A DNA stretch of 64,000 bases from an uncultured Anaerolineales bacterium (GCA_964453155.1 CAYVQU010000007.1:3036-67035), one strand, 5' to 3'. Positions 31,241-50,354 are shown, counted from the stretch's first letter. The notes: generated by a model not told the origin, from the sequence alone. Numbers and translations are program-made.

Positions 31241-34200
31241 TTATTGGTATTCCTTGATCCGATTCAAAGATGCAACGAAATCATCGCCCAAAATTGGTTT
31301 CACCAAATAATCGGTGGCTCCGAGATCAAAACCCTTATCGATGTCCTCTAGAATGCTGCAGATGATCACCGGGATATTTCGGGTTTGCGGGTCAGCTTGA
31401 AGCTCTTCCAGTAGTTGCCAACCATCATGATCTGGGAGCATAATGTCGAGGGTGATTGCAAAGGGCTGAATTTGACGAGCGAACTCCATCGTTTTGCTTG
31501 GATCGGTAAGGGGTACGATATCGTACTCAGAACCACTCAAATACCGTTCGTAGAGATGAATGACCTGCATATCGTCGTCGATAGCCAGCACAGTGTTGCC
31601 GCCATCGACATCGGGAGGCAGAAGGGCTCGATCATCCAAGGGGAGCGTGAAGAAGAAATCACTCCCTTTGCCTTCTTCACTCACTAAACCAATTTCACCG
31701 CCATGTAATTCAACCAATAGGCTCGTAATAGAGAGACCCAACCCAGTCCCACCAGTTGCCCGGGTGGGTGAACCATCAACCTGAACGAATGGTTCGAAGA
31801 GTTTATCTTGATCTGCCGCCCCGATACCCAGCCCGGTATCTTTCACACTTATGTAAAGTTCGGGCAGACCACTTTCATTGGTTTGCTGCCGGGCTGTCAT
31901 TGTGATGCTGCCTTCGTCCGTAAATTTGGCGGCATTTGAAATCAGGTTGAGTAATATCTGACGAACTCTGGTTGAGTCAGCATTGACTATGGGTAGGTCC
32001 TCCTCGATAGCCGCTATGAGTTCGACGGGTTTATCCTTGATCAAGCCGCGCGCCGTAGACATTACGCTATTGATAATATCGGTAACGATTACATCTTCGA
32101 AGGCCAATTCCATCTTCCCGGCATCGATCTTGGAGATATCCAAAATGTCGTTAATCATTTTGAGCAGGTGCTGGCCAGCGTTATAAATCGCTCCCAGGTC
32201 TTGCTGCTGGAGGTCCGTCACTGGGCCGTCGATGCCTTTCATGATCACGCGCGAGAACCCAATGATGGAGTTCAGCGGAGTCCGCAGCTCATGGGACATG
32301 TTCGCCAGGAACTGGGATTTGAGTTGATCGAGCTCACGCAACTGCTCTGCGGTTTCAAATTGTTCCTCGTAAAGTCGGGCATTTTCGAGTGAGATGGCGG
32401 CTTGATTAGCCAGGGTCATCAACAGATTGATTTCATCGTCTGAAAATGAATATTCATTGTGCCTGGTTTCGATTTCGATAACACCGATGGTTTGACCTTT
32501 GACTGCTAACGGCAAAACCACCATCGTACCCACCTTATTCTCTGTCATGTAGGCAATTTCGGCCGGGTCTGCATCCTCGTCACCGATGTTCACCACCAAA
32601 ACTTCCTGTGTTTCTAATACTTTAGCTGTTGCTGGATATTCTGATAACGCAAAGTTCCAAATGCTAGGGTCATCATCCAGTCCTTGATGACCTTCAGTAA
32701 GGCCTAAACTGGAAATTGTAATCATCGAGTTTGGATCGATGGAATCTAGTAAGGCGATTGAACAACTCGCTTCATCCGGAATTAGATTAGCAATTTGCAG
32801 AGAGATAACATTCGCTACCTCCCGGGTTTCCAAAGGTGCCCTGGAGAGGTTCTGACTGGCATCGGATAGAGTGGTTAAGTCCTGAACGCGTCGTTCGGTT
32901 TCCGCAATCGCCTCCTGAACGGCTTGATAGGCCCGGGCATTGGCGATTGCGACCGAAATCTGATCAGCCAGGGTTTGGAGCACGGTAATATCATCATCTT
33001 GGAAAGTATCGATTTCAGTAGCTTGAACATCCAAAGCCCCAATAACGCGATTACCAATTTTTAGCGGGATCGCTAATTCGGCCGCAGTATCTGGTAAGAG
33101 TGGATGAGGTTGGTGGGTTTTATCCTGACTGACATCGTTAATGACCAGGTATTCGCCACTGGCTGTCACTGCCCCGATTATTGATTTAGACCCCACAGCT
33201 AGGCCATGGCCGGTTTCCATCATTTGTACCCCGGCTTCTCCGGTAGCTGCTTGGATCACTGCATTTTGACCAGTCTCATCCAGTAAGAAAATTGATGAGT
33301 GGTAAAAATCAAACCGGTCTCTGACGGAATTTACACTACGGATAAGGAGTTCTTCCTGTGAAAGGGTGGCAGATGTATCCCGGGCAATTTCGGCTGCAGT
33401 TTCCAATTGACCGGCTTTGCGGATACTGTCTTCCAATGACCGGATGTTTTGGATTGCCACTGCTGCCTGTCCGACCAGACTCATCATTTGGCGAATGTCG
33501 TTTTCGGCGAAATCTTGTTTTATCTCGTAAATTGCGATGATATGACCAAACCATTGCCCACCGGCAACCAGAGGGGCAAAGACCAGGCTATCGGCCTGGT
33601 AATGGTCCACATAGACCTGACGTCCAACCTCGTCTAATCTTGGATCATTGGCAATATCGGTGATAATGACTGCCTCGCCGGGGTTGAGTAAGTCTTCGGC
33701 CGTTGACCAAGCACTGAGCGGGTATCTTTGGTTTTTTTCCCGAGGACCTTCGGTTAATTTATTCCAGCGCGCAATCGGTATTAGCCATTCCGGTTGGGTA
33801 TCTGTATCCCAGACTTGATCAAATAGACTGACTGAAACACTTACCACCCCTTCTCCTAATATGGAATGATTCCGTAAAACGGAAAGGATTTCAGCATAAG
33901 ACTGCACCGTATTCAACTCAGAACTAGCCTGATAAAGGGCTGCCATTTCGTTTAGGGCCGTTTCAACTTGATCAAATAGCCGAGAGTTCTGAATTGCGAT
34001 GGCGGCCTGATTGGCAAGAGTCGTAGCCATGCGGATGTCTTCGTTAGCAAATGTTCCCTTAGGGGTTTGGCGATTCAAAGAGATAACCCCAATTACTCCC
34101 TCTGGCCCTACCATGGGGACGGTTGCGTTAGCTGCGATGCCGGCGGCCTTAAAATTCTCGCGGGCGTGTTCTTGCAACCGGGGATCATCGGCGAAGATGT

Positions 34201-37200
34201 TCGACGGTTGACGGGTACGAATAACTTGCTGTGTCAGAGGATAGCTTTCAAGCGGGATGCTCTCACCGATCGTTGACTCACCGGCAGTAAGTTCGGGGTA
34301 TGAACCCGACCGGATCATGTTTTCGCCTTGGAGCATGAACAAACTGACCGAGTCAGCTTCAGCAGCTTGGGCCACACTATTGATGAGGGTTTTGCTGACA
34401 TCTTCAAAACTCAGCGATTCACTCAATTCAGAGGTTGTCGATTGAATGATTTGCAGGTCTTCGAGTTGTTGCTGGGTTTGGGAGAATAAGCGGGAGTTCT
34501 CGATGGCGGAAGCTGCTTGACCGATAATTGTTTCAGCCAATCGTATCTCTTCTTCAGTGAATCGGCGACCAGCCTCGAGAATATCGAGGCCCACGGTGCC
34601 GATCACGCGACCAGCACTGATCAATGGCATTATTGCCAGGGACACAACTCCATGAGATTTCATCACTTCATGGATCGGTGCCGTGATGGGATCATTTTGG
34701 GCGTCATCGACAACCAGGGATTGCCCAGTTTCAATTACTTTTTGCGAAGATAGATTGCCTTCCACGGGTAGCTCAACGCCTACCGCTGAGGGGCGTTCTG
34801 GATTGGGTGAATATGCCGCGATAATTGTGAAAGTGGTCCGGGCGTTATTAAGCAAGGCAATGCCCGTTTGAATATTCAAGGCCCGGCCTAATTCCGAAGC
34901 CACAATATCCAAACTTACTGACAGGTCCAAAGAACTGGCCACTTGTGAAACGATGTTGTTAATCAAGGCTAATTCTTCACTGCGTTGTTGGGTCTGGTCG
35001 AAGAACTCGACGTTCTGCAGCGAGATCGCAGTTTGACTGGCGATAGAGGCCAGAAGATCCCTTTGACGGGTGTCATAAAGGCGGGGCGTAGTAACACTTT
35101 GAACCGTAATAACGCCAACAACCTTTTCACCAACCAACATAGGAACCCCCAACCAACAGAGTGGCGGTCCACTGTCGCCCAGCGGTACAAATTCAGCCCC
35201 CAAATTTTCCATGTGGGTAAGGACATCATCTTCGAGCAATAAGGCTTCACCATTCTTGAGAATATATCCGGTTAAGCCCTTTCCTGCTGGTTGGGTAAAA
35301 GTTTCGGCGGGTTCACCGTTAAAAACGTTGAACTCGACAGAAATTTCGGTCTGTTCATCATCAAAAGTTGCAATGAAAAAATTAGTTGTATCGAGTAATT
35401 GGGAGGTGTACCGATAGACAGTTTCAAAAACTTGTTCCCGTTCCAAAATTGTGGTCAATTCCCGTCCCATATCATTGAGAATTGAAAGATCATCGGTTTG
35501 TTTTTGAGTCGCCTGGAATAAACGGGCGGTCTGGATCGCGATCGCCGATTGGCGGGCAATTGAGATTAATAAATCTTGATGATGTTCGTTGAAAACATGG
35601 GGCGTATCCGCATTTTGAGTGGCGATGACACCCAAAACATCATCACCAATAATCAAAGGTACCCCCAACCAAGATTGAGCTGGGGCACCGATAATAATTT
35701 TTTCAAGACCTAATTCTTTGATAACCTCTTCAATATTTTCTGAGATGAGCAGTGGTTTTTTCGTATCGATTACGTGTTGGGTTAATCCCCGCCGTTTTTT
35801 CATGGTGGGGATATTGGATAATTCACCTTGTTCATAAACTAAGGGGAAGGAGACAGTATCATTTCGTTGGTTATAAAGCGAAATAAAGAAATAAGTCGTA
35901 TCCATCAACCGAGATGAGTACTCGTGGATGGTGCCCATGATTTCATCCAAATCGAACAGTGTGCTGAGCACGCGACTCATCTCATTGAGAACGGCCAATT
36001 CTGCAGCCTGATCTTGGGTTTGCTCAAAGAGGTTGGCATTTTCAATTGCGACCCCAATTTGCTGACCAACTGCCGAAAGCAGCGAGATATCGTTGCTTTC
36101 GGGCGACAATTTCTGGGTTGAAAATGTACACAACGTCCCTAGAATCTCCCCTTTGGCTTCGAGCGGTACCCCCTGATAGGATTGATACCCTAAGTTTATG
36201 GGGCCAGAGACTTCTATATCTGTAATTTTTGACAGATCATCGAAGTAAATCGGTTCTTTCCCCAGGTAAACCATTTCACATAAAGAACCTTCAAGTCCGT
36301 TTTCTTGAATACTCAATAACATCGCTTCCGGTAATTCATGTGCCAGGAGATCAAGTTTTCCGGTATATGCATTTGCGATTGTAATGAGCCCGATTTCTGA
36401 ATCGATCGTATTGAGTACCAGGTCCAATACTTCCTTTAGGGTCGTTTGTAATTCGAGAGAACTACTCGCCACATTAGTGATGCTCAATAGTGATTCGGTT
36501 TCTGATAAAGCCTCTTGAACTTGGTCAAGAAGCCGGCGGTTTTCTAGGTTGGAACCTATAACGGCAACCAATTGTTGTAGTAGATTTTCATCGCGGGATC
36601 CATACGCATTGGGTTTCAGACTACCAATATTCAGAGTCCCCACAATTTGGGTACCAAAGGCGACCGGCGCGACCATGAACGATCTCACCGCGCCTAAGGC
36701 TTCTTGGTTCGTATCAGGAACAACAATTGTTCTGTTTTGTTGGACCACGCTTTCCAGGGTTGAATCGGCCAGTGGAACGATATCACCAATGACGGTTGTG
36801 CCGGTTTCCCCCCGGATTGCAACCACTTCAATGGCATCTTGAGTGGGCACCAACATCGCCAAGGTTATCCGATCGGCAGTGAAAATTTGCTCAGATTTTG
36901 TGGTAATAAAGTTGTACGCCTCAGGAAAACTTTCAGCCCGGCTAAGTTCTTCACTGAGGTCGTTCAAGAGGGCCAGCCGGCGCACCAATTCTTCTGTTTC
37001 AGAAAGTGCGGCCTGGGTTTGTGAAAACAGATTCGAGTTTTGAATGGCGATCGCACTTTGGCTGGCGATGGCCACTAATAATTCCAGGTCCTGATCTGAA
37101 AAATGATGTGAGGCTTTGTTTTGGACACAAATAATACCTAAAGCCCGGTCTCCAATTGCCAGGGGAACGCCCAACCAACTTTGGGACATTTCACCGACTA

Positions 37201-39859
37201 ACTTTACTTCAATACCATGCGCCTCCATCCAGTCCAGCAGGTTTTCTGTGATCAGGGTGGGTTGCCGCGAGCGCAGCACATATTCCGTCAGACCATCCCC
37301 CATTGGGCGAGTAGGTATTTGAATTTCTTGACTGTCTTCAACCGAAAATGGGAAAGAAAGTTCGTCGGTTTCCGCGTTGTATAGGGCGATAAATAAGGTT
37401 GAAGTATCAATCAGCCGAGACCCATACATATAAATATTTTGGATAATGGAATTGATATCCAAGTTTTGTGATAGGGTTCGGCTCATCTCATTGAGGACTT
37501 GTAACTCACTGGCGCGGGCCTGGGTTTGATCGAACAGGTTCGCGTTTTGCAGCGCATTTGCCACCTGATCTGCCATGGTTTGTAGGATGGCCACATCCTC
37601 GCCACTAAAAGCCTCTACTAATGAGCTTTGAATAGTCATTGCCCCAATCACCTGGCCACGGCTAATCAAGGGCAAGGCAATTTCTGTTTGAGTTTCCGGT
37701 AAAAGCGGGTTTACAAACCGGGTGGTTGAAGTCGTAATTTGCTCGGGAGTTTGCGGTTCGGCGCTGCGAATACATTCCCCAATCATTGAACCCCCACCAA
37801 TCTCTAATTGGTGACCGCGTTCAATTTGAATCCGCCCAGCCTCCCCAGTACCCGCGCGCAATACGGCCCAGCGACCGGGTTCCTGGGTTAGTTCGCCACT
37901 ATGATCAACAAGAAATAAACCAACATAATACAAGTCAAAGCGGTCTTGAATCAGGTTTACAGTTTGCTGAATGAGCGGGTTAGGTTCCAGGATTGAACTT
38001 GCAGCGCGGGATACTTCTGCGGCGGTTTGCAACTGAACACTGCGGCGTTTAATTTGTTCGAACAAACGGGCATTTCGGATTGCAACCGAAGCCTGGGCTG
38101 CAATCGCACTAACCAGATCAACAGTTTCTTCGTTATAGGCATTGGGCACCGAATGATCTAAAAAGAGCAAACCGATCGTATCTTCACCGGCCAATAATGG
38201 GGCTCCAATCCAGGAACGAACATGTTCGATCCCTTCAACCTTCTCCCACAAAGGATGTTCATGGGTGTCTGGGATGATGAGCGGGGTTTTGGTATCAACA
38301 ATGGACTTGACCAAGGGATCTTCTGTTAGCGGTCGTAACAGCCGGGGCGAGGCGTCTAATTTTTCGTCCCCTATTTTGCTGAAGGCCGTCAGGAGACGAC
38401 GCTGGTCGCCTTCAACACTTTGCAGTGAAGCGGTTGAGAATTCAACCACATCTGTTAACTGAGCCAATAATCGGTTACCCACATCTTCCAGTTCGAGGGT
38501 GGCGCCAACCACCCGGGCAGTCTCACTCAACGTGTCCGCGATTTGCCGGCGGCGCTGCTCCTCCTGGAAAAGCTGTGAGTTGGCCAGGGCTGTAGCAACC
38601 TGGTTGGCCATCGCGTTCAATAACTCAACATCACCTTGAGTGAAATTGTTTTGATCCGGCCGATTAATCGTTGTTATTGTCCCGAAAACTTCATCGCGGT
38701 AGATTAGAGGAACGACGATCAAAGACCCCGCTTCGGTTTGCTCCCGGACTTTTCGAGCTTCGGCAGACTCCCGCAGATCAATTTTCTCTTTAAGAGAAAG
38801 TGCGGGTTCGCGTTCTCGCATACACCACCCCGTCAAACCGTCCATTAAATCGGAATATGTGTTTTCGTTGATTTCAATAGGGGGGGCATTACTCTCAAAG
38901 AAGTGGGTTAATATTTCTTTTTGGGTGTCAAAAACAGCAATTAAGGTGCGATTAGCCGGTAGAACCTTCGTAATTGAATCAATAACCGCCTGAAGTAATT
39001 CTTCGAGATTTTCGAATGCAATTGCAGCCTGGCCCACGTTGTATAGGGCCTCGGTTCGCGACAGGGATACTTGGGTTTCCTGAAACAATCGGGCATTCTC
39101 GAGGGCAAGAGCCAACTGGTCAGCCACTTGCTCTACCAGCCGTAGTTCATCCTGGTTCCATTTTCGATTGGGGTCTGGGTCGATGATCTCCATCAATCCT
39201 AATGATTGATCTTGGAGATCAACCGGTACGGCTAAGGTTGCGGGAGCTTCGGCCGTGGCCTCAATGGCGATACTCTCTCGTTTCAAAGCACTGGCCCGGC
39301 CGACATCTGTTAGGGGTTGGGTTACCGATAAAACTTGGTCGGCCTCGATGGCCACTCCTAATGCCTGGAAATCGGATGATAATGTTTGGGTGGATCGCTG
39401 ACCGGGGTGTTCACCTTCACCCTGACCGACCGGTGGTTGAAACTTGTTGTCGGTTGGCTCAGCTATTACCTGATTTAAACCTTGCCAGCCAATAACCTGA
39501 TTTTCGTCATCAAAGATCGGTTTAATATTGACTCGAACCAATAAATCGATCCCCGAAGGAACCTCGAAATTTATTTCAAGTTCATGAAACTGCGGGTCTT
39601 CCGCAATAACCATTTCCAGGGTCTTAGCCGATTCTGCTGTCACCAGATATGAGCAGATCGATTTTCCAATAAAAGTCTCTGGGGCATACCCTAAGATGCT
39701 TTCAACTTCAGGGCTGCACGCGACATATCGACCTGCCGGGTCACATTCCCAAATCCAACCCGAGATGTTCTCATCTTCGGAGGTGGTTTTGGAAGCCTTG
39801 TCCTCTAAATCTGAAAACAGATCGTTAAGCCGGTTGTGTAATTCTTTCTGTTTTGACAT
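31241..39859 (-). CDS. Giant hybrid sensor histidine kinase: PAS + ~13-14 GAF-type repeats + HisKA + HATPase + REC (2872 aa)
   Basis: N-terminal PAS-like segment ISGWIWECDPAGRYVACSPEVESILGYAPETFIGKS. I count 14 occurrences of the GAF terminal-helix pattern (ADQLALALENARLFQETQ, ANQVATALANSQLFQEEQ, AAQASVAIRNARLFEQIK, ... ANQAAISLENARLYEEQF). H-box FLANMSHELRTPLNSIIGF. N-box LLNLISNAAKFT. G-boxes DTGLGI and GGTGLGLSIT. Receiver VLAIDDD...TLDIMLPDHDG...DYLVKP. Confidence 0.9.
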   Translation of the reverse strand: MSKQKELHNRLNDLFSDLEDKASKTTSEDENISGWIWECDPAGRYVACSPEVESILGYAPETFIGKSICSYLVTAESAKTLEMVIAEDPQFHELEINFEVPSGIDLLVRVNIKPIFDDENQVIGWQGLNQVIAEPTDNKFQPPVGQGEGEHPGQRSTQTLSSDFQALGVAIEADQVLSVTQPLTDVGRASALKRESIAIEATAEAPATLAVPVDLQDQSLGLMEIIDPDPNRKWNQDELRLVEQVADQLALALENARLFQETQVSLSRTEALYNVGQAAIAFENLEELLQAVIDSITKVLPANRTLIAVFDTQKEILTHFFESNAPPIEINENTYSDLMDGLTGWCMREREPALSLKEKIDLRESAEARKVREQTEAGSLIVVPLIYRDEVFGTITTINRPDQNNFTQGDVELLNAMANQVATALANSQLFQEEQRRRQIADTLSETARVVGATLELEDVGNRLLAQLTDVVEFSTASLQSVEGDQRRLLTAFSKIGDEKLDASPRLLRPLTEDPLVKSIVDTKTPLIIPDTHEHPLWEKVEGIEHVRSWIGAPLLAGEDTIGLLFLDHSVPNAYNEETVDLVSAIAAQASVAIRNARLFEQIKRRSVQLQTAAEVSRAASSILEPNPLIQQTVNLIQDRFDLYYVGLFLVDHSGELTQEPGRWAVLRAGTGEAGRIQIERGHQLEIGGGSMIGECIRSAEPQTPEQITTSTTRFVNPLLPETQTEIALPLISRGQVIGAMTIQSSLVEAFSGEDVAILQTMADQVANALQNANLFDQTQARASELQVLNEMSRTLSQNLDINSIIQNIYMYGSRLIDTSTLFIALYNAETDELSFPFSVEDSQEIQIPTRPMGDGLTEYVLRSRQPTLITENLLDWMEAHGIEVKLVGEMSQSWLGVPLAIGDRALGIICVQNKASHHFSDQDLELLVAIASQSAIAIQNSNLFSQTQAALSETEELVRRLALLNDLSEELSRAESFPEAYNFITTKSEQIFTADRITLAMLVPTQDAIEVVAIRGETGTTVIGDIVPLADSTLESVVQQNRTIVVPDTNQEALGAVRSFMVAPVAFGTQIVGTLNIGSLKPNAYGSRDENLLQQLVAVIGSNLENRRLLDQVQEALSETESLLSITNVASSSLELQTTLKEVLDLVLNTIDSEIGLITIANAYTGKLDLLAHELPEAMLLSIQENGLEGSLCEMVYLGKEPIYFDDLSKITDIEVSGPINLGYQSYQGVPLEAKGEILGTLCTFSTQKLSPESNDISLLSAVGQQIGVAIENANLFEQTQDQAAELAVLNEMSRVLSTLFDLDEIMGTIHEYSSRLMDTTYFFISLYNQRNDTVSFPLVYEQGELSNIPTMKKRRGLTQHVIDTKKPLLISENIEEVIKELGLEKIIIGAPAQSWLGVPLIIGDDVLGVIATQNADTPHVFNEHHQDLLISIARQSAIAIQTARLFQATQKQTDDLSILNDMGRELTTILEREQVFETVYRYTSQLLDTTNFFIATFDDEQTEISVEFNVFNGEPAETFTQPAGKGLTGYILKNGEALLLEDDVLTHMENLGAEFVPLGDSGPPLCWLGVPMLVGEKVVGVITVQSVTTPRLYDTRQRDLLASIASQTAISLQNVEFFDQTQQRSEELALINNIVSQVASSLDLSVSLDIVASELGRALNIQTGIALLNNARTTFTIIAAYSPNPERPSAVGVELPVEGNLSSQKVIETGQSLVVDDAQNDPITAPIHEVMKSHGVVSLAIMPLISAGRVIGTVGLDILEAGRRFTEEEIRLAETIIGQAASAIENSRLFSQTQQQLEDLQIIQSTTSELSESLSFEDVSKTLINSVAQAAEADSVSLFMLQGENMIRSGSYPELTAGESTIGESIPLESYPLTQQVIRTRQPSNIFADDPRLQEHARENFKAAGIAANATVPMVGPEGVIGVISLNRQTPKGTFANEDIRMATTLANQAAIAIQNSRLFDQVETALNEMAALYQASSELNTVQSYAEILSVLRNHSILGEGVVSVSVSLFDQVWDTDTQPEWLIPIARWNKLTEGPREKNQRYPLSAWSTAEDLLNPGEAVIITDIANDPRLDEVGRQVYVDHYQADSLVFAPLVAGGQWFGHIIAIYEIKQDFAENDIRQMMSLVGQAAVAIQNIRSLEDSIRKAGQLETAAEIARDTSATLSQEELLIRSVNSVRDRFDFYHSSIFLLDETGQNAVIQAATGEAGVQMMETGHGLAVGSKSIIGAVTASGEYLVINDVSQDKTHQPHPLLPDTAAELAIPLKIGNRVIGALDVQATEIDTFQDDDITVLQTLADQISVAIANARAYQAVQEAIAETERRVQDLTTLSDASQNLSRAPLETREVANVISLQIANLIPDEASCSIALLDSIDPNSMITISSLGLTEGHQGLDDDPSIWNFALSEYPATAKVLETQEVLVVNIGDEDADPAEIAYMTENKVGTMVVLPLAVKGQTIGVIEIETRHNEYSFSDDEINLLMTLANQAAISLENARLYEEQFETAEQLRELDQLKSQFLANMSHELRTPLNSIIGFSRVIMKGIDGPVTDLQQQDLGAIYNAGQHLLKMINDILDISKIDAGKMELAFEDVIVTDIINSVMSTARGLIKDKPVELIAAIEEDLPIVNADSTRVRQILLNLISNAAKFTDEGSITMTARQQTNESGLPELYISVKDTGLGIGAADQDKLFEPFVQVDGSPTRATGGTGLGLSITSLLVELHGGEIGLVSEEGKGSDFFFTLPLDDRALLPPDVDGGNTVLAIDDDMQVIHLYERYLSGSEYDIVPLTDPSKTMEFARQIQPFAITLDIMLPDHDGWQLLEELQADPQTRNIPVIICSILEDIDKGFDLGATDYLVKPILGDDFVASLNRIKEYQ
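31244..32362 (-). other. Kinase core (HisKA-HATPase, ~31595..32362) and receiver domain (~31244..31594) of the giant kinase
   Basis: Residue counting back from the C-terminus: the last 373 aa begin at QFETAEQLRELDQLKSQFLANMSHELRTPL, and the last ~117 aa form the REC domain. Confidence 0.75.
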
Positions 39860-40607
39860 ATTGTGTCAACTCCTGCGCTAGAGTGGTATATTGCTGCGCA
39901 CTCCGGCTGCTGGGGAGATAGTGGGTAATAGGTTGGCCAGCGATGGCACATTCACGCAATTTGCTGTCGGTTTGGATCATCGTATCGAAAACGGCCGCAT
40001 CGAAAGTTGTTTTGAGTTGTTGACTCAGTGTATTATGCGAACCAATGCGGATATCAAGCATTGTTATGAGAATCCGATATTTCAAACCTGGATTTTCAGA
40101 TTTTCGAATGGATTGGATCATGCTCATCATATTGCGCAGTGCATAGGCTGAGAAATATTCTGCCTGGGTTGGGATAATTAACAAATCTGCCGCGGTGATG
40201 GCATTCAGCGTAACAACCCCTAGGGATGGCGGGCAATCCAAGATGATCAAGTCATAATGGGAAATGGTTTCGAGCGCAGTTTTTAAGATTGATTTGTAAT
40301 CTTGTCGGATCGGTAAAAAGCGCTCGGTTAATCCCATTTCAGAATTTGAGGGGATCAAATCTAAACCAGGGATGGCGGTCTCACGAGAAACGCTGACCGG
40401 TTTTGCCGAGTAAAGCATCACATCCGCGATTGACCGCCGGACTTTATGGGGGGCAATCCCCATTGCCAAAGATAAATTGGCTTGCGGGTCTAAATCAACC
40501 AGCAAAACTTCGTATCCTTTCTCAACGAAAGCCCCGCCAATGGAAACCGCGGTAGTGGTTTTTGCCACTCCACCTTTTTCATTTGAAACTGCAATAACGT
40601 TCGTCAT
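39825..40607 (-). CDS. ParA/Soj/MinD-family P-loop ATPase (orphan; no ParB nearby)
   Basis: Deviant Walker A VSNEKGGVAKTTT, LLVDLDPQANLS, Walker B LIILDCPPSLG. 260 aa. Its 3' end overlaps the giant kinase start by 35 nt, and there is an 8-nt gap to the upstream gene. Confidence 0.85.
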   Translation of the reverse strand: MTNVIAVSNEKGGVAKTTTAVSIGGAFVEKGYEVLLVDLDPQANLSLAMGIAPHKVRRSIADVMLYSAKPVSVSRETAIPGLDLIPSNSEMGLTERFLPIRQDYKSILKTALETISHYDLIILDCPPSLGVVTLNAITAADLLIIPTQAEYFSAYALRNMMSMIQSIRKSENPGLKYRILITMLDIRIGSHNTLSQQLKTTFDAAVFDTMIQTDSKLRECAIAGQPITHYLPSSRSAQQYTTLAQELTQYVKTERITQPA

Positions 40608-40615
40608 AACATCAT

Positions 40616-43600
40616 TTAAGAATTTGATTCTTTCGATTGGACCACGACTTGGGCGCGCTGGGCTTGTAAGGCCTCCCGGAGTTCGCTAGCTGCAGTGTGC
40701 AGCATCGCCTGAGGATCAGTGGTTGCTCGAATTTTGGTTGTAATTTCAGTTACCAGGCGCTCGCGGGCGGCCCGCCGTTGGGTGGTATCGAGCAAGCGCA
40801 AGGTTTCGGCTGCCAGACCAAACTGCTCGCTGACAGCCTCAGCAATCGCAATATCATCGGGTGACCAAGAGTCTTTGTCGGGAGGTAAATTGAAGCCCAA
40901 AGCCCCAATGGGTTCATCGCGAAGTAGCACGGGGACGGCCAAGATTGTATTGGTGCCATTCTCGTCTGCTAAAACGATGGAACGCTTTTCTTGCATGGCG
41001 ACTTGTACTTCAGGTAGTAACTCATTTCCTAATGGAATGATATCGGCATCCGTACTTTGATATCCGGTTTTTGTCTGATTTTGTGTGAATTCAGACCAGG
41101 CCTGGGTCAAGTAACGCCGTTGCGTGCGTTCTAACTCAACCAGCGCAGTTTGGGTTTGTTCGAACAGACGAGTATTTTGAATCGCGCTGGCAATCTGGTT
41201 GGCCATCGTAGTCAGACTGGCAGCATCTTCGGGGGTGAATGCATGAGCTGCCGTGCTCTGAATAGTGAGGGCCCCAAATGTAGATCCTCGGCTGGTCAGC
41301 GGTAAGGCCATCTCTGAGCGGGTGTCTGGTAAGTGGGGGTTGCGTAAGTGTATCGGTGCTTGCTCCACTTCAAGCTGAACATCAGCTTGACCGCTCTCAA
41401 TACACCGACCGATCATGGATCCGCCACCGACCTCTAATTTCCAGTTTTGAGCCAACATTTGCTGCCCCGCCTCGCCGGTACCGGCCTGGAGGTCGGCCCA
41501 TTGCTGGCTCTCATCTACCAGGAATAAACCCACATAGTAGAGATTGAACCGATCGCGGATGACGTCCACAACACGAGGGAGCAAAACATCAACATCCAAG
41601 ATGGATGAGATTGCACCCGCAACTTCTGCCGCGGCACTTAATTGGGCCGACCGTCGTTCATTCAAAGCTAGGCTGGCTTGCATTTCATCAAACAATCGGG
41701 TATTCATCAATGCCGCGGAAATCTGGTTGGCAACTGAAGTTGCTAGACCCAGATCCATATTTGTAAAGTCAGGACTTTCGAGGCGTTTGATGAGCGTCAT
41801 TGTGCCGAAGGTTTCGCGCTGAGAATGTAGCGGCGCGATGATAATTGAACCAGCTCCGAAATCTTCCCGCCTTTTTTGTGCCTCCGGGCTTTCACGGGGA
41901 TCGGGGATCATTGTTTTTGGAGAGAAAATGGGTTCCAGATCGCGCAATGCCAACCCACTTAACCCCTCCCATAACTCTCCATAACTGGCTCGATCAAATT
42001 CTTCTGGGGCGTGGGGGCCAGCCATGCTCACCAACTCAACGGTTTCAGTAGCGGTATCGATGATGTTGATTACTACGATATCGGCCTGAGTCCCATCAGC
42101 AGTCCCTTCTACGGCTGCCTGGACCGCCTCAGCCACGCTGGTAACATCTCTTAGCCGACGGCTGGTAATATTGAGGATATTAGCGCGATTGAGGGCCGCA
42201 CTGGTGGTGACCGAGAGTTTTAGCCCATGAAGACTACTGCTGATATATTCGGCCAGATTGAGATATTGGCTGCTAATTTGGGGGCTATATTCAAAGATCA
42301 CATATCCGTGACTGGTTGTTTGGTGGTAAATAGGGCGGATGACCAATGAAACGGACTGCGTTTCTGGGAGAAGTTGATCAGGAATGATCTGACTTTTGGG
42401 GAGCAGCGTGTCGGTTAAAACCCCGGTGGAAGTAAAAAGGATGGGGATTTGATACTGGTTCGCGGCAATTTCGTTATCGGGTTGTAAAATCAACCCAAAA
42501 CCAGGGACGCCTAAAAATTGCAGCCCGTTGGCCATGATTTCGTAAAATGTAGGAAAATCCGCGGCAGTATTGAGGGCTTGTCCCCATTCACGAATATTGG
42601 TTGTGAATTGTTCGGTTGAATTTTGGCGCTGCTTCTGACCTCGAAGGGCGATATCACTTAACAGGGTTTGGGATTGAAATAGCCAGGTTTCGATTTGGGC
42701 ACTTAACGTCAACTCCTTGAAATCAGGCGGTAATAGGAATTGCCGCAGAAATCTCAGCATGTTTTGCCAGTGTTGAAGTTGGTCGGTTTGAGTTTGAAGT
42801 TGTGTGAATATCCGATTAACTGACCGGATAAATTTGGTTTCATCCTGGGTTTTGATGACGGCCGCAAAAGCAGCGATCAGGTCTGCCGTCGCCCAGGTTT
42901 CATTTGTTGGAATCTCTGCTTTCTCGTTGAGCATGGCGGAAAGCTTTTCTTTTTGTGGGGCTAAGGCGGTTACATCCAACCGGATTTCGGGTGGCGCGCC
43001 CTCGGTAGTTTGTGGCTGGATGGGCAAACATCCACAAGACTCCCTGGTCACCAGAGCGGTAGCCAGCCGGACGATTGGTTCAACTTCAATCCCGTTAATT
43101 TGTTTGAGCAGCAGTTCAACGGCCATCTGACCTTGTCGATGAATGGGTTGGTGGACAGTTGTGAGGGGCGGGGCTGAAAAATTCCCGTCTTCAATGTTAT
43201 CGAAGCCGACGACTGCGATGTCTTGGGGAACATGCAGATCAAAAGATGGCAATGCGGCCATGATCCCAATTGCCATCGTGTCATCGACACATACAATGGC
43301 ATCAACTTTGGCCTGACGATCTGTAAGCAAAGTTGTCACCGCCCCAGTAGGATCAGTATCAAAATCAGGGGGAACCACTAAGTTGGGATCGAATTCGATC
43401 TCATGATCGTTCAGGGCGGCAAGATAAGCCTGGTATCGTTCTTCGGCCTCCGAATTCCCGGCATATTGCTGAATGAAAGCAATATTTCGATAGCCATGAT
43501 CGTCAATTAAGTGAGATACAGCCTGATACATCCCCGAATGGTTATCAATTAATAAACTGGGAATATTTTCCAGCCCTAAAGCAATACTTACAGTGGGTAG

Positions 43601-43924
43601 GGAGGGAAATGTGGCCTGAATTGTTTGGCGAGCCTGTTCAGCAGTATCTGAAAATAACGTGCCGGAGGCAATAATTAACCCGGCAACTGTTTCGGCGGCT
43701 ATCAGTTCGTAAATTGCGTTTTCTTGGGCTGCAAACGGTTCATTTCCCTGAAATCCTCCCCCAATAAAAGTGACCAGGTTAACTTGAAGATTTTCAGCCG
43801 CCGCGACAACACCCTGCCATAAAGTTTGTTGATATCCCAGGGAAATATCATCAATGATGAACCCAATTGTAGGGTATGAATTCCGTTGGCTTTGAGCGGC
43901 GTTCTGTTGGGCTGCAGTGGCCAT
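40616..43924 (-). CDS. Cytoplasmic sensor protein: LacI-type periplasmic-binding-protein-fold ligand domain (no HTH) + GAF + GAF(A-type) + half-GAF + conserved tail; no output domain
   Basis: aa 17-296 (IGFIIDDISLGY...VAGLIIASG...GYRNIAFIQ...VDAIVCVDDTMAIGIMAAL...DIAVVGFDNIE...PPLTTVHQP) match the LacI/PurR sugar-binding core without the N-terminal HTH. A-type GAF RDRFNLYYVGLFLVD...LPDTRSEMALPL...ALTIQS. Tail TTQRRAARERLVTEITTKIRATTDPQAMLHTAASELREAL. Confidence 0.8.
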   Translation of the reverse strand: MATAAQQNAAQSQRNSYPTIGFIIDDISLGYQQTLWQGVVAAAENLQVNLVTFIGGGFQGNEPFAAQENAIYELIAAETVAGLIIASGTLFSDTAEQARQTIQATFPSLPTVSIALGLENIPSLLIDNHSGMYQAVSHLIDDHGYRNIAFIQQYAGNSEAEERYQAYLAALNDHEIEFDPNLVVPPDFDTDPTGAVTTLLTDRQAKVDAIVCVDDTMAIGIMAALPSFDLHVPQDIAVVGFDNIEDGNFSAPPLTTVHQPIHRQGQMAVELLLKQINGIEVEPIVRLATALVTRESCGCLPIQPQTTEGAPPEIRLDVTALAPQKEKLSAMLNEKAEIPTNETWATADLIAAFAAVIKTQDETKFIRSVNRIFTQLQTQTDQLQHWQNMLRFLRQFLLPPDFKELTLSAQIETWLFQSQTLLSDIALRGQKQRQNSTEQFTTNIREWGQALNTAADFPTFYEIMANGLQFLGVPGFGLILQPDNEIAANQYQIPILFTSTGVLTDTLLPKSQIIPDQLLPETQSVSLVIRPIYHQTTSHGYVIFEYSPQISSQYLNLAEYISSSLHGLKLSVTTSAALNRANILNITSRRLRDVTSVAEAVQAAVEGTADGTQADIVVINIIDTATETVELVSMAGPHAPEEFDRASYGELWEGLSGLALRDLEPIFSPKTMIPDPRESPEAQKRREDFGAGSIIIAPLHSQRETFGTMTLIKRLESPDFTNMDLGLATSVANQISAALMNTRLFDEMQASLALNERRSAQLSAAAEVAGAISSILDVDVLLPRVVDVIRDRFNLYYVGLFLVDESQQWADLQAGTGEAGQQMLAQNWKLEVGGGSMIGRCIESGQADVQLEVEQAPIHLRNPHLPDTRSEMALPLTSRGSTFGALTIQSTAAHAFTPEDAASLTTMANQIASAIQNTRLFEQTQTALVELERTQRRYLTQAWSEFTQNQTKTGYQSTDADIIPLGNELLPEVQVAMQEKRSIVLADENGTNTILAVPVLLRDEPIGALGFNLPPDKDSWSPDDIAIAEAVSEQFGLAAETLRLLDTTQRRAARERLVTEITTKIRATTDPQAMLHTAASELREALQAQRAQVVVQSKESNS
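43037..43876 (-). other. LacI-family-type ligand-binding (Peripla_BP) domain of the 1102-aa protein
   Basis: Coordinates from residue counting (aa 17-296). No helix-turn-helix precedes it; only 16 residues lie upstream. Confidence 0.65.
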
Positions 43925-45654
43925 TAGCGGGTCTCCTCACGGGCTGAATTGTTGGCATTTGATCCGTTTTCAGGAGCAGACGCGGAATCCTGTTCGGGGA
44001 TAGAACCAAACTGGACAAAAGAGCTGGAGGCTCCCAAGGTTTGGGCGACTTCTTGAATAATCGTGTTCATTAAGTTTTCAATATCACCGGCGCGATGTAG
44101 TTTATCGGTGAGGCTGGCCGTAGTCTGTTCGCGCTCGGCCCGACGTTGGGTTTCCTCATACAACCGGGCGGTATCTAAGGTGGATTCAAGTCGGTCAGTT
44201 AAAGTACTTAAGAAATTTATCTCGGTCGTCGTCCAGGCCCCGGAATCATTTTTTTTCTGAACATCGAGTTGACCGACGACCTGCCCGCGGATCTGAATGG
44301 GTATCGATCGAATTTGCTCATTTTCTGGTTCAGGTACGACCTCTGGAGAGCGGATTTCATTTATTCCGGTTTGATTACGCCGATACCCGACCTGACCATA
44401 ACGGCTGAGAAATTCCTGCCAGTCTGTTTGAGTTTGTTGACGGTAAGCTTTTCTTTCGGCTTCTAACGCGGCTTCTTTTTCGCTCAATAATTCGACATTC
44501 GATAACAACACTGCAATCTGGTCAGCCAAAATTTGGAATGAATTGGTCGTAGCCGGGCCAAATGGTTGCCTGAGGCGACTTTGCAAGGAAATCATCCCCA
44601 GAATTTCTTGCCGGGATCGTAAGGGTAAGATGGCAATTGCTTCGGTGTTGGATAACAAATATGGGAAATCGTCGCTAGTAATTTCGGGATCGATTACGCG
44701 TGATTGGGCTTGCGAGGTGGTCAATACTTCACCAAAAATACCCTCTTTTGCCGGAAACTCATCGTAAAGGTTGGGTAAATTTTGCCCAAATCCACCACTG
44801 CTGGCCTGGATCGATAAAGTGTCCCGATTGGCATTTAATGTCAGAATTCCGACATGAATTAAATCAAACCGATCTTCGATCAAGGTAGCTGCTTGAAACA
44901 TCAATAACTCGGGTTCTAAAATTAAAGAAATTTGACGGCTAATTTCCGTGACTGTTCCTAATATCGATGACCGGGCCTGTAGTGTTTTCGTTTGTTCCTG
45001 GAGAGCGCTTTGTTGTTCCTCTAATTCGGTAGTTAAAACTCGACTTTGGCTAAGCGTAGTGAAAAGGTTGTTTAAGATGGCCGACACCGATGAAACAACC
45101 ACAATACCAATGACCAAAAAGGTCGTACCAGTACTAAACCAAGCTGACCAATTATCTGGTTGGGTGAGTATCTCGATAGCGGCATATCCATAGGGGAGGA
45201 TCGCCTGCTGGAATAAATACCCAAACAGCAACCAGGTGAAATAACTAACGAAAGATAAGATTAAACCCACTCGGCCGCGAATGAAGATGGCAGCAAAGAT
45301 TGGCGCACTAACCAACCATAAACGCCCATCTCCGACCAGGCCTGTTTCGAAAGTCGATAACAACCCTAGCAGGTACAGCAGAAGGATAAAGCTGCCGGCT
45401 CTTAAATTGTAGGCAATTCTACGGATATAAGTAATACTGATCAGCCAGAAATACACCCCAATATAAATTCCCAAGAATACCCAACTACCCCGTTGGGCCA
45501 ACGTATAAATGCTGATGAGAACGATAAAAAAGCCAGCAAAAGTACCTAAGGTTAAGATCGCTGAAAAAACGCGCTCTCGCCAAACCTGAAGCGTGACATC
45601 CTCGTCACCCTCAGATTGAGTAAATAGCGGTTCCAGAAAAGGAACAAAATTCAT
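43924..45654 (-). CDS. Membrane sensor paralogue: polytopic N-terminal module + coiled-coil + degenerate A-type GAF + half-GAF + conserved tail
   Basis: About 6 hydrophobic spans (WRERVFSAILTLGTFAGFF...). EDRFDLIHVGILTLN... GAF. KAYRQQTQTDWQEFL linker. IPIQIRGQVVGQLDV. Tail ETQRRAEREQTTASLTDKLHRAGDIENLMNTIIQEVAQTLG. TAATG overlap with the downstream gene. Confidence 0.8.
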   Translation of the reverse strand: MNFVPFLEPLFTQSEGDEDVTLQVWRERVFSAILTLGTFAGFFIVLISIYTLAQRGSWVFLGIYIGVYFWLISITYIRRIAYNLRAGSFILLLYLLGLLSTFETGLVGDGRLWLVSAPIFAAIFIRGRVGLILSFVSYFTWLLFGYLFQQAILPYGYAAIEILTQPDNWSAWFSTGTTFLVIGIVVVSSVSAILNNLFTTLSQSRVLTTELEEQQSALQEQTKTLQARSSILGTVTEISRQISLILEPELLMFQAATLIEDRFDLIHVGILTLNANRDTLSIQASSGGFGQNLPNLYDEFPAKEGIFGEVLTTSQAQSRVIDPEITSDDFPYLLSNTEAIAILPLRSRQEILGMISLQSRLRQPFGPATTNSFQILADQIAVLLSNVELLSEKEAALEAERKAYRQQTQTDWQEFLSRYGQVGYRRNQTGINEIRSPEVVPEPENEQIRSIPIQIRGQVVGQLDVQKKNDSGAWTTTEINFLSTLTDRLESTLDTARLYEETQRRAEREQTTASLTDKLHRAGDIENLMNTIIQEVAQTLGASSSFVQFGSIPEQDSASAPENGSNANNSAREETR

Positions 45655-45656
45655 GG

Positions 45657-48527
45657 TTATAGCTCCTCCTGGAGATTTTTAAGATCGTCGGTAAGACGGA
45701 TCGATACTTCTTCAAGGGGCAAAGAATCATAGATTTCATTCACCGCAGTTTGCAAAATCGTTTCAATATTCAGGCTAGATCGTAACCGAGTCGTGATTTC
45801 TCCGATGATTTGCTCTCGGACGGCTCTTTGTTGGGAATCCCGATAAAGTCTGGCCCCTTCCAAGGCAACTCCCAATTGCTCAATGATCGTTTGCACTACT
45901 TGTAGTTCTTCGGGGGCCCAGTTGCCGGCTTCGATCGGTTTATGCGTATTCAATACCCCAATCGTCGTATCGCGCACCTTAATTGGAATAGCCAGGTTAT
46001 GACTCCCTTTTTCAGTGGATTGGGTAATATCTCCGGCCCGTAAAGCTGTCTTTTCGATATTTGTGGATTGATCTTCAACCGCAATGAGACCTTGTTCACT
46101 GCTCTTGTAACCCAGGGTGCTCTGGGTAGCTAAAGTCTCTGTCCAGGCTTGGTCACTGATCTCGCCATAAGCCCGGCGAGAAGCTACCAGGGCATCTTGT
46201 GTTTGGGTATACAAGTTGGCATTATCGATGGCGACACTCACTAGATCTGCCATTGTTTGGAGAATGGCAATGCTGGCGTCATCGAAGGAATCAGGTTCAG
46301 AATCCTGAATAGTGAGGGCCCCGATAATTTGCCCGCGAACTCTTAGCGGCAGCGCGGCCTCCGAACGAGTTTCGGGTAGTTCTTCAGTTGCCAGGCGCAC
46401 AGCATCCGCACCTGCCTCCAGCGCAATTCGGGCTTCGGCATTAGCAATACTCCAACCGATCATCCCTTGGCCAACTTGAATGCGGTGTTGACGAGCTAAC
46501 ATTTTCTGCCCAGCTTCCCCTGAACCAGCCCGGAGATACGCCCATTCCCGCGACTGATCTACTAAGAACAAACCCACATAATAAAGGTTGAAACGTTCTC
46601 GAATGACCTCCACAACCTCCTGGAGCAATTGAGTGGGATCGAGCATCGCAGAAGCAGCCCGGCCTACATCCGCGGCGGCCTGGAGGTGGGTGGATCGTTT
46701 TTCCAGGTCGCGGGTGCGATCGCTGACACGTTGTTCCAAGGACCCGATCGATTCCAATAATTGTTCCGTCATTTGGTTGAAGGATTGAGCCAAAATTCCA
46801 ATTTCATCCTGGCTGACTACCGGTGCGATTCTGGTCAGATCACCCTGGGAAATCGCAGTTGCAGTTTCGGTCAGACTAGCAATCGGGCGGATGGCCTGAC
46901 GGATCGCCAGCGTAGTCAGCCCTCCCAACAAAATTATGCCTACGACCATGGTCAACCCCACTGCAGACTGGAAAGCATTCAAAGGTCTGAGTAGTTCAGC
47001 CTCTTTTTGTTGGACAACTACCCCCCAGCCATTTTCCAGCCGTGCTGCGATCGCAATCCAATTCTCGCCATTTTCATCGGTAAATTCGACCAATTCGACC
47101 AGTTTGTCACTTTCTGAGCGCCGTAGGGCCGTGATGGCGGGGTCGGTGGAAAAATCTGCAAGAGAATATTGTTGATCGGGGTGAATCAACACCTGGTTAT
47201 TATGGTCAACAATATAACTAAATCCGGTTTCACCGATCTGATAAATATCAAGCGAAGTGCGGAAATCCTCCAGAGTAGAGGCCAGCATACCGATACCGAC
47301 CAATTCGTTCTGGGATGAATAAATTGGTTTAGCGATTACCAACGCGGGTTCGCCACTCGTTTTGCCAATTAGACTTTGATATGCGATTGGTTCACCGGCC
47401 AATATTTTTTGAACATATTGCCGATCACTATTATCTTTATTGGGGGCACCATCGCTGCGGGAGACATTTACGCCATCTAACCCAATTGTGCTAATCAAAT
47501 AAATATGTTCAAACGCTTGATCAACGCTTTCCAAAATGGGTCTTTGCGAGTTTGCGTTCATTGAACGCACAGAACCCAATTCAATTACGGCATCTAAGGC
47601 ATTGATGCTATAGGTTAGCGAGGTTTCAACTGACTTTGAAATGGTCTGGTTGCTTGTGGCTAGATCTTGAATGGCGTTTGATTTAATAAATACACCTGCC
47701 CGGGAAATAACGAAGGTAGAAATGGCCAACATCAACGGCAATGCGATCGCCAGGACTAATATCGTTAAGCGCGGTTGCAAGTTCCCCCGTTGCAAATGGC
47801 GCTCAGAGAGCATTTGCGCAAAGGCGGCGTACCCATATCCAACCACGAAGACAGTACTGGTGATGAGCAGGGCCAAAGATACTTCGATCGTGAAGATTAG
47901 CGAGATATTTACAATTTGGGCGGCGACTTGGGTTCCTAACAGAATAAAAGCCAGGCGCCGGGTGGTACTCGGGAGGGTGCGATCAAAGAACGCAAAATAG
48001 AACTGAGGAATGATGACAAAAATGGATAGACCATAAATCATCAATCCCCGGAACCAAGCTGAAATCTCACCTTGGGTGTAGGTAGAAATTGGCAGATACC
48101 CCCCCAGGTAAGTATCGGGGTTGAACCCCGAATACCATAGATTGGTGGCGGTCGTGAGATCCAGAATTGTCAACACCAGTGGTGCAAAAAATAGAGCGTA
48201 CAACCCCCACCATAAATATTTCAGACGGCTTTGCAGCCATCGTTCTTTAAGCAAAATGATTGTGACGATCAGCAATCCCGGTTGGGCCATTGGAGTAGTG
48301 ACCGCGATCAGAATACTCGGGAGACGGGCTTGATCGAACAACTCGGCAATGGTGAAAGCCCCAATCGCATAGGAGTTGATGGCAAAAATAATCATCAATA
48401 TCCCAACCCGACGGTTTGCATTTGCCCAGGGGTTTAATAAGATGATGTAGAGACCCAAGATAAATTCGATCAGGGCCACTGACCAGGCAAACATCTGGAT
48501 GATTTCTAATGTTTCAAGTTGGAACAT
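45657..48527 (-). CDS. Membrane sensor paralogue: 7TM-type N-terminal domain + Cache-like extracytoplasmic domain + HAMP + A-type GAF + half-GAF + conserved tail
   Basis: Start placed at ATG 48527 (AGGAG 8 nt upstream); the alternative ATG 48545 overlaps the upstream gene. HAMP: RPIASLTETATAISQGDLTRIAPVVSQDEIGILAQSFNQMTEQL. GAF: RERFNLYYVGLFLVD...LPETRSEAALPLRVRGQIIGALTIQD. Tail DSQQRAVREQIIGEITTRLRSSLNIETILQTAVNEIYDSL. Confidence 0.8.
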   Translation of the reverse strand: MFQLETLEIIQMFAWSVALIEFILGLYIILLNPWANANRRVGILMIIFAINSYAIGAFTIAELFDQARLPSILIAVTTPMAQPGLLIVTIILLKERWLQSRLKYLWWGLYALFFAPLVLTILDLTTATNLWYSGFNPDTYLGGYLPISTYTQGEISAWFRGLMIYGLSIFVIIPQFYFAFFDRTLPSTTRRLAFILLGTQVAAQIVNISLIFTIEVSLALLITSTVFVVGYGYAAFAQMLSERHLQRGNLQPRLTILVLAIALPLMLAISTFVISRAGVFIKSNAIQDLATSNQTISKSVETSLTYSINALDAVIELGSVRSMNANSQRPILESVDQAFEHIYLISTIGLDGVNVSRSDGAPNKDNSDRQYVQKILAGEPIAYQSLIGKTSGEPALVIAKPIYSSQNELVGIGMLASTLEDFRTSLDIYQIGETGFSYIVDHNNQVLIHPDQQYSLADFSTDPAITALRRSESDKLVELVEFTDENGENWIAIAARLENGWGVVVQQKEAELLRPLNAFQSAVGLTMVVGIILLGGLTTLAIRQAIRPIASLTETATAISQGDLTRIAPVVSQDEIGILAQSFNQMTEQLLESIGSLEQRVSDRTRDLEKRSTHLQAAADVGRAASAMLDPTQLLQEVVEVIRERFNLYYVGLFLVDQSREWAYLRAGSGEAGQKMLARQHRIQVGQGMIGWSIANAEARIALEAGADAVRLATEELPETRSEAALPLRVRGQIIGALTIQDSEPDSFDDASIAILQTMADLVSVAIDNANLYTQTQDALVASRRAYGEISDQAWTETLATQSTLGYKSSEQGLIAVEDQSTNIEKTALRAGDITQSTEKGSHNLAIPIKVRDTTIGVLNTHKPIEAGNWAPEELQVVQTIIEQLGVALEGARLYRDSQQRAVREQIIGEITTRLRSSLNIETILQTAVNEIYDSLPLEEVSIRLTDDLKNLQEEL

Positions 48528-48531
48528 GAAG

Positions 48532-50244: not shown

Positions 50245-50320
50245 AAATATTCAAATCACCTGGATAGGGTTGACTTTACGATCTGCTGATCGCGCGAACA
50301 AACTCATTGGAAGCAGTGAA

Positions 50321-50348: not shown

Positions 50349-50354
50349 CACGGC

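Follow-up and report, generated by a model that had tools for sequence, protein, structure and literature searches.

A Soj-derived ParA encoded with a giant multi-GAF hybrid kinase in an uncultured Anaerolineales bacterium, and its candidate partner peptide

The parA gene and its relatives

In a 64-kb stretch of DNA from an uncultured Anaerolineales bacterium (GCA_964453155.1, CAYVQU010000007.1:3036-67035), here called the window and analysed over its full length, a gene for a ParA-type ATPase is placed between a long array of sensor genes and the gene of a giant hybrid histidine kinase (Table 1). Sequence comparison suggests that this ATPase derives from chromosomal Soj without working any longer with ParB and parS, and the evidence points to the kinase as its direct partner. 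A first-pass annotation of this DNA had recorded the gene with its deviant Walker A motif, an 8-nt gap to the preceding gene and a 35-nt overlap with the 2872-residue kinase gene; open reading frame (ORF) calls and translation bear out all of these and place the gene on the minus strand, a detail that the annotation lacked. The preceding gene encodes a PBP(LacI-type)-GAF protein of 1102 residues and ends at 40616. The overlap with the kinase gene implies translational coupling, and the Shine-Dalgarno sequence of the kinase falls within the ParA codons for a conserved AQEL. Every sequence analysed comes from uncultured organisms; the identical ParA protein recurs in metagenomes, on contigs as long as 68.5 kb, and the named relatives are labelled as metagenome-assembled genomes of Anaerolineales, Anaerolineae or Chloroflexota.

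The same annotation described the window as free of ParB, parS-like repeats and plasmid context, and this description stands. All 39 window ORFs of at least 150 residues were scanned against Pfam, and no ParB was found among them; the parS consensus TGTTTCACGTGAAACA has 0 matches at up to 3 mismatches in the 64 kb. By Pfam, the left part of the window carries a glycosyltransferase operon and chromosomal housekeeping genes (pyruvate kinase, alanine dehydrogenase and ornithine/aspartate carbamoyltransferase), and the right part, to its end, is a single co-directional run of 11 sensor genes. Centromere-like non-coding repeat arrays are likewise absent from the window, the repeats at 27-64 kb being coding repeats of paralogous GAF domains. 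Moreover, the window ORFs include no che, MCP, CheW, ParP/CheW-like or polar landmark genes, no min or flh genes and no McdB or carboxysome neighbours, and Che, MCP and CheW domains are also missing from the related loci.

Besides AAA_31, the ATPase matches the Pfam families CbiA, BcsQ (9.6e-16), MipZ and ParA. All 44 family members have K11, G12, G13, V14, A15, K16, T17 and T18, as well as D38 and D40 of Motif 2/Walker A' (aligned to M. xanthus D58/D60) and the Walker B D124; with the signature lysine, the aspartates and a predicted P-loop NTPase fold of the Soj/MinD type, the protein is assigned to the deviant-Walker A (ParA/MinD) superfamily. The nearest solved structures, as ranked by phmmer against the PDB, are M. 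xanthus ParA (2.4e-40), a M. smegmatis ParA-like protein (3e-38), H. pylori Soj (1e-36) and T. thermophilus Soj (9e-35), followed at a distance by McdA (6non, 1e-14), MinD (8e-14) and ParF (4e-10). Similarly, an AlphaFold2 (AF2) model with a mean predicted local distance difference test (pLDDT) of 82 and a predicted template modelling score (pTM) of 0.86 gives Foldseek template modelling (TM) scores of 0.83-0.88 to the Soj proteins of B. subtilis, H. pylori and T. thermophilus and to M. xanthus ParA, of 0.80 to McdA, and of approximately 0.7 to MinD, FleN and BcsQ. No NCBIfam model reaches its cutoff for this protein; ParA_partition, whose cutoff is 180 bits, gives it 107, and the MinD models lie far below theirs.

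In a neighbour-joining tree computed with our own code, the GAF-linked ParAs form one clade (95/100 bootstrap) apart from 56 ParB-linked proteins that are 33-39% identical to the window ParA. Clustering with chromosomal Soj had been named beforehand as an outcome that would count against the proposal of the first-pass annotation; the protein falls instead into a clade separate from the ParB-linked Soj proteins. The Walker A residue Ala15 is specific to the clade, being Ala in 120/120 family members vs Gly in 56/56 ParB-linked homologues, and the C-terminus is polar, length-variable (proteins of 253-268 residues) and, in many members, an out-of-frame image of the kinase start. Taken together, sequence and model suggest a Soj-derived protein with intact catalytic residues that constitutes its own lineage within Anaerolineae-type Chloroflexota. 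The outgroup of the tree was E. coli MinD. The reference Soj of B. subtilis has R189, R218, K16, D40 and G12 at their published positions, and the Spo0J probe used in the locus survey below found ParB ORFs beside ParA.

Several established identities were considered for this protein and rejected. Membership of the ParABS ParAs (Soj) was set aside on the missing adjacent ParB, the lack of parS in the window, a replaced Y81/E117 site (described below), the separate clade and the score below the NCBIfam cutoff. McdA was set aside because its match (1e-14, 19-21% identity) compares with 1e-36 to 1e-40 for Soj/ParA and neither McdB nor carboxysome genes are neighbours, whereas for MinD/FlhG no C-terminal amphipathic membrane-targeting helix is evident, min and flh genes are missing and the MinD models stay below their cutoffs. 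A chemotaxis-array ParA of the ParC/PpfA kind is set apart by gene context alone, the chemotaxis context being absent.

The gene neighbourhood was compared across 90 loci by our own ORF calling and BLAST, and individual loci are cited by their numbers in this set. A scan of genome contigs returned 3 loci with this ParA, a metagenome pattern scan returned 6 clade members among the matches listed, and the homologues of 30-40% identity that serve as the ParB-linked control set are likewise matches listed by the latter scan. In 13/14 distinct loci with a ParA homologue of at least 46% identity, that gene has GAF-sensor genes on one side and a multi-GAF kinase on the other, and ParB stands beside ParA in 0/14 of the loci; among the homologues listed at 30-40% identity, by comparison, a Spo0J-like ParB ORF follows directly 3' in 56/75. 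A ParB partner just outside the window had been a further outcome to be watched for, and no ParB was found within 10 kb on either side in any clade locus seen, including one on a 1.35-Mb contig.

Conservation of the gene order, on which the first-pass annotation had made its proposal depend, was found as well. Annotated contexts for homologues at 83, 71, 65, 64, 62, 63, 61 and 63% identity have an identical gene order, in which sensor-GAF genes, variable in number, are followed by ParA, a multi-GAF hybrid kinase (1133-2872 residues), a PALP-REC protein and EamA, with a convergent OmpR-type regulator after EamA wherever it is visible. This order is kept down to approximately 52% ParA identity; PALP-REC, for instance, lies directly 3' of the kinase in L007, L091, L093, L094, L097, L098 and L099. 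In 12/12 loci, the 3' end of the ParA gene runs 8-47 nt into the kinase gene, and position and overlap are both retained across 52-100% identity. An orthologous multi-GAF kinase is directly 3' of ParA in all clade loci with a visible downstream gene except L015 and L012. In the former (6765-12177; 46-48% identity), the locus is rearranged, with a 771-residue kinase 5' of ParA and a dCache-HAMP-GAF sensor 3', so that ParA still lies between the two and the linkage survives the rearrangement.

Two further loci have peculiar structures. In L096 (293-2521), two facing ParA copies (P0057, 251 residues, and a 260-residue paralogue) are each followed by a truncated PAS fragment with the peptide MSKxK..NR[LI]DNLF; inverted duplication or contig chimerism may explain the arrangement, and the locus was used for peptide sequences only. 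In L002, from another sample, the kinase, otherwise 100% identical, is split into ORFs of 498 and 2357 residues (7351-8847 and 8896-15969); the split may reflect a population variant, a pseudogene or a misassembly.

The kinase N-terminal peptide and the ParA interface

The kinase encoded directly after ParA begins with a conserved peptide, a feature that goes beyond the first-pass annotation. Its consensus is MSKxKxLxNRLxxLFxDL, and the forms in other loci include MSKKKQLNNRLNALFADM, MSKQINLRNRLDDLFADL, MPKKKPIDKRLKNLFEAI, MSKKQLRSRLDNLFATL, MSDQNKLNQRINDLFADL and similar sequences. The peptide is kept in 12/12 loci and in 24 distant kinase orthologues, representatives of 50%-identity clusters that came from phmmer, with kinase residues 1-140 as the query of an exhaustive search through 1.84 billion cluster representatives. 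These 24 proteins align from kinase residue 1 at approximately 32-45% identity over the matched stretch, all with a recognisable motif; a regular expression for the motif matches 21/24 of them vs 0/126 other PAS-domain matches. Arg10 occurs in 32/33 sequences, there is almost no variation at the Leu/Ile, Leu and Phe positions, and the peptide is followed by a variable acidic linker of approximately 15 residues and then by the PAS domain (GWTWECD...). Loci with an early ParA stop and no more than 8 or 14 nt of overlap retain the peptide as well, so that it is the kinase peptide that is under constraint, rather than the ParA tail. The peptide is basic, with a mean net charge of +2.6 over residues 1-12, and residues 5-20 have an amphipathic helix pattern with a hydrophobic moment of 0.52-0.58, a value reached by 2.6% of shuffled sequences; the helix at residues 3-21 in a single-sequence AF2 model of kinase residues 1-140, at a low-confidence pLDDT of 44, is a hint only.

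Peptides of this kind are familiar from other systems. Partners of ParA/MinD ATPases bind them and stimulate their ATPase activity through a positively charged, disordered N-terminus (PMC10241942; PMC11407121), and the motif of chromosomal ParB consists of aliphatic residues with one central positive residue and folds into a helix (PMC12462528; see also PMC5393062). In M. xanthus, ParB Arg13 docks on ParA residues Y81/E82/D110/E117, and paired N-terminal motifs are required for efficient ParA stimulation (PMC12462528). The ParB ORFs of the control loci begin with ..KK-GLG[RK]GLxAL[LFI], and when set in register, the ParB pattern L-G-R-G-L-x-x-L-[LF] and the kinase pattern L-x-x-R-L-x-x-L-F have equal hydrophobic spacing. 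Moreover, when a hidden Markov model (HMM) of the peptide was run over 1656 ORF N-termini, ranks 1 and 2 were both ParB, and 5 ParB were found in the top 40 vs 1.3 expected. The likeness to the ParB motif is suggestive and is no proof of homology; on this basis, the kinase peptide is proposed as a putative ParA-binding and ParA-activating motif.

The ParA side of this putative contact was read from a phmmer alignment to M. xanthus ParA, in which chain index + 19 equals the UniProt numbering, as checked by D58, D60A and N64. The equivalent of Y81 is A61 in the window protein, with Ala in 108/120 family members and Tyr in 0/120, and the equivalent of E117 is F97, with Phe in 118/120, whereas at these positions Tyr and Glu are each found in 44/56 of the ParB-linked controls. 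The hydrophobic pocket is kept in altered form, L150 being L/M/I and L152 being Ala/Val in place of Leu/Met. The residue aligned to Soj R218, reportedly a DNA-binding residue (Hester and Lutkenhaus, 2007), is K/R216, with Lys or Arg in 118/120 family members. The equivalent of Soj R189 is R187, with Arg in 120/120 family members; R189 is required for nonspecific DNA binding (PMC5393062), and M. xanthus Y81 and E117 are described as invariant (PMC12462528). The DNA (matrix) interface of this ParA thus appears to be retained and its partner interface remodelled, which is the pattern expected of a ParA with a changed partner, insulated from ParB.

The wider module

The remaining genes of the module are collected in Table 1. 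The inputs of the array sensors are PBP, MASE11, dCache-HAMP or HAMP combined with GAF. All 10 GAF-type sensors of the array lack an output domain and share a C-terminal stub of approximately 60 residues (..TQxRAxREQxxxEITxKIRxxLDIETILxTAxxELxxxL..). An HMM of the stub matches the kinase 14 times, at a spacing of approximately 172 residues and at GAF-GAF junctions, so that each sensor ends with a connector helix and the first elements of a missing "next" GAF; the stub may serve to dock the sensors onto the kinase's GAF spine. The sole array member without GAF is a FIST_N/FIST_C protein (51872-53014, minus strand), which is weakly similar to the nitric oxide sensor NosP (77 bits vs an NCBIfam cutoff of 450).

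Table 1. Features of the module, with positions counted from the first nucleotide of the window
Feature	Position	Strand	Basis
ParA-type ATPase gene, 260 aa, ATG start	39825..40607	minus	ORF call and translation; Pfam AAA_31 7.8e-49
Deviant Walker A EKGGVAKTT (signature Lys K11, P-loop Lys K16)	40554..40580	minus	Translation
ParA 3' end (YVKTERITQPA, then stop) overlapping kinase 5' end (MSKQKELHNRL), 35 nt	39825..39859	minus	ORF coordinates
AGGAG Shine-Dalgarno sequence for the kinase, 10 nt 5' of its ATG	39870..39874	minus	Sequence reading
Kinase codons 1-20, MSKQKELHNRLNDLFSDLED, conserved basic amphipathic N-terminal peptide	39800..39859	minus	Translation; conservation
Hybrid histidine kinase, 2872 aa: N-peptide, linker, PAS, 13-14 GAF, HisKA, HATPase_c, REC	31241..39859	minus	Pfam
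11 co-directional sensor genes without output domains, 5' of ParA	40616..63974	minus	Pfam
PALP (threonine-synthase-like PLP enzyme)-REC fusion, the module's conserved response regulator	29414..31108	minus	Pfam; NCBIfam; synteny
EamA-family exporter, conserved last module gene	28272..29219	minus	Pfam; synteny
OmpR-type response regulator, convergent, conserved beside the module	27450..28235	plus	Pfam; synteny

With PALP-REC as the conserved response regulator and EamA as an exporter, the output of the pathway may be the synthesis and export of a small molecule derived from an amino acid, rather than transcription. Two more kinases adjoin the module on the plus strand (22778-27447), namely, a GAFx3-HisKA-HATPase protein of 1031 residues and a REC-GAF-HisKA-HATPase protein of 536 residues; both are without the N-terminal peptide, and the pair formed by the REC-containing kinase and the OmpR-type regulator is also kept in L007 and L098. 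Between EamA and the convergent OmpR-type regulator gene there is a 29-nt inverted repeat with flanking A/T runs (28221-28283), probably a bidirectional terminator.

Interpretation and known systems

The reading favoured here, with slightly more confidence than doubt, is that a Soj-derived ParA has left the ParB/parS partnership and that its dedicated partner is the giant, translationally coupled multi-GAF hybrid kinase, which would be positioned on the nucleoid. In this mechanism, the ParA-ATP sandwich dimer would bind nucleoid DNA nonspecifically via the conserved basic residues R187 and K/R216, and the kinase, as a dimer, would present two N-terminal peptides, each made of a basic stretch, an amphipathic helix and an acidic flexible linker. 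The nearly invariant Arg10 of the peptide would contact the remodelled neighbouring site at A61 and F97, where chromosomal ParA has Tyr and Glu. The kinase, together with whatever assembles on it, would thereby be tethered to nucleoid-bound ParA, ATP hydrolysis and ParA release would be stimulated, and the expected outcome is a diffusion-ratchet distribution and inheritance of a large, probably low-copy signalling complex. The first-pass annotation had proposed, by analogy to PpfA, ParC and McdA, that ParA positions a cluster formed by the array proteins and the kinase; the N-terminal peptide of the kinase lends support to this analogy, whereas the evidence does not imply that the sensors join the cargo. 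Its label "orphan" is only partly apt, for there is no ParB beside the gene, and yet a partner can now be identified in the downstream kinase.

A bolder version, to be taken as tentative and rather less credible than the reading above, regards the locus as a rewired parA-parB pair. The activating motif of ParB would in effect have been transplanted to the kinase and the ParA site would have co-evolved (Tyr to Ala, Glu to Phe), and a megadalton two-component "signalosome", composed of the kinase and up to 11 output-less GAF-type sensors, perhaps docked via their truncated-GAF tails, would be partitioned on the nucleoid like a plasmid, with the state of the kinase dimer possibly gating ParA activation via peptide pairing.

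Several observations weigh against the favoured reading. The kinase peptide lacks the glycines of the ParB motif and its basic residue is one position off, and the peptide-HMM E-values for ParB are approximately 1-2, which is not significant alone and leaves the rank enrichment only. In L015, the gene after ParA is the dCache sensor with a degenerate motif, its N-terminus MESFKQSLEELFSDF keeping only L..LF.D. The sole exception to the linkage is L012 (1991-2986; 51-58% identity), whose ParA, a member of the clade in the tree, carries a 30-residue N-terminal extension and lies on a 5.2-kb contig without any GAF or kinase gene nearby. Moreover, several array sensors are membrane proteins (MASE11, dCache-HAMP) and would, if bound to the kinase, place the cargo at the membrane, unlike that of a classical nucleoid-matrix ParA.

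The main rival, which is possible although on the unlikely side, is an ATP-dependent regulatory switch with no spatial role, in which dimeric ParA grips both N-terminal peptides of a kinase dimer or keeps the kinase sequestered at the nucleoid. Such a switch would tune kinase activity or couple the kinase to the cellular ATP or nucleoid state, as in Soj-DnaA or FlhG/FleN-FleQ. It draws on the same linkage and peptide evidence as the positioning model, and complexes of known ParA/MinD regulators (FleN-FleQ, BcsQ, Soj-NrdR) are among the structural neighbours of the protein; a tight 1:1 translational coupling would also fit a stoichiometric regulator, and since paired N-terminal motifs are needed for stimulation (PMC12462528), the conformation of the kinase dimer could gate the interaction. 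However, the DNA-binding arginines are retained (120/120 and 118/120), which suggests the nucleoid as a matrix, and a very large, probably low-copy complex is a typical ParA cargo. Regulation and positioning are not separable from sequence and are not mutually exclusive.

Alternatively, ParA could be a membrane or polar localiser in the manner of ParC, MinD, BcsQ or TadZ, by which a membrane sensor-kinase assembly is clustered at filament poles or septa without the nucleoid. The many membrane sensors of the array agree with this improbable alternative, as do the precedents of ParC and BcsQ (PMC11407121) and the Pfam match to BcsQ given above, yet the C-terminus is length-variable with no amphipathic membrane-targeting helix evident, the protein is far nearer to Soj than to MinD, FleN or BcsQ, its DNA-binding arginines are conserved, and neither a polar landmark nor a ParP/CheW-like gene is found among the window ORFs. 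An ordinary chromosome- or plasmid-partition ParA that sits in this operon by chance, with its ParB and parS elsewhere, is close to refuted: although its nearest solved structures are chromosomal Soj/ParA and its catalytic and DNA-binding residues are canonical, it belongs to a clade (95/100) apart from the 56 ParB-linked homologues, is ParB-adjacent in 0/14 clade loci vs 56/75 of the more distant homologues listed, keeps its position and overlap across 52-100% identity, has the Y81/E117 docking residues replaced, and lies in a housekeeping chromosomal context with no parS in the window and a score below the NCBIfam ParA_partition cutoff.

ParA/MinD ATPases are a general bacterial means of placing large cargos, and many "orphan" ParAs are left without a known partner. 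Cargos on record are chromosomes, plasmids, carboxysomes and other microcompartments, the divisome, flagella, chemoreceptor arrays, and secretion and conjugation machines (PMC11407121, PMC10241942). The cargo table of a 2024 review (PMC11407121) contains no two-component kinase, and in the literature searched, neither this operon nor a ParA with linkage to a two-component kinase is described. In the present case, the partner can be named from sequence alone and, as a histidine kinase, would add two-component complexes to the list; if the rewired-pair proposal were true, this would be the first ParA system with a two-component signalling complex as its cargo. The case would also offer a natural example of partner-specificity rewiring, with the DNA interface kept, two ParB-relevant residues changed and the partner motif present as a variant, and would imply a discrete, low-copy cellular structure, built from the multi-GAF kinase and its sensor array, in the widespread, little-studied filamentous Anaerolineae.

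Compared with known systems, the orphan ParA-like protein of M. smegmatis (PDB 4pfs/5ihp/5if9) shares the KGGVAKTT Walker A, is matched at 3e-38 and likewise carries no annotation that ties it to a ParABS system, but it is only approximately 33% identical and was deposited as a "cobyrinic acid a,c-diamide synthase"; it is not known to be linked to a kinase. In McdA-McdB, a nucleoid-bound ParA positions a protein cargo via a partner with a charged N-terminus (PMC10241942), as is proposed here, whereas the present ParA has far lower similarity to McdA, no McdB or carboxysome beside it, and an enzyme, the kinase, as its putative partner. PpfA-TlpT of Rhodobacter sphaeroides and ParC-ParP of Vibrio resemble the present case in having the gene of a ParA-like ATPase within an operon for signalling, and PpfA is reportedly stimulated by the N-terminus of TlpT (Roberts and colleagues, 2012). 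Both are thought to act on a large signalling assembly via a signalling or adaptor protein (PMC11407121); unlike them, the present locus lacks CheA/W, MCP and ParP, and its candidate partner, a two-component hybrid kinase, carries GAF repeats.

Chromosomal ParA/Soj (Soj of B. subtilis, T. thermophilus and H. pylori, and M. xanthus ParA) remains the closest in sequence (33-39% identity) and in predicted fold (TM 0.83-0.88), and has in common with the window protein a small single domain, the deviant Walker A, Motif 2 and Walker B, the arginines for nonspecific DNA binding, and a partner gene directly 3' that starts with a basic, hydrophobic N-terminal motif. The two differ in that the downstream partner is here a PAS-multiGAF hybrid histidine kinase and not ParB, with no parS in the window, and in the exchanges of Tyr to Ala, Glu to Phe and pocket Leu to Ala/Val, the clade-specific Ala15 and the separate clade. 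By analogy, the system would be most like a ParABS system in which ParB has been replaced by a kinase, and would functionally be most like PpfA/ParC or McdAB.

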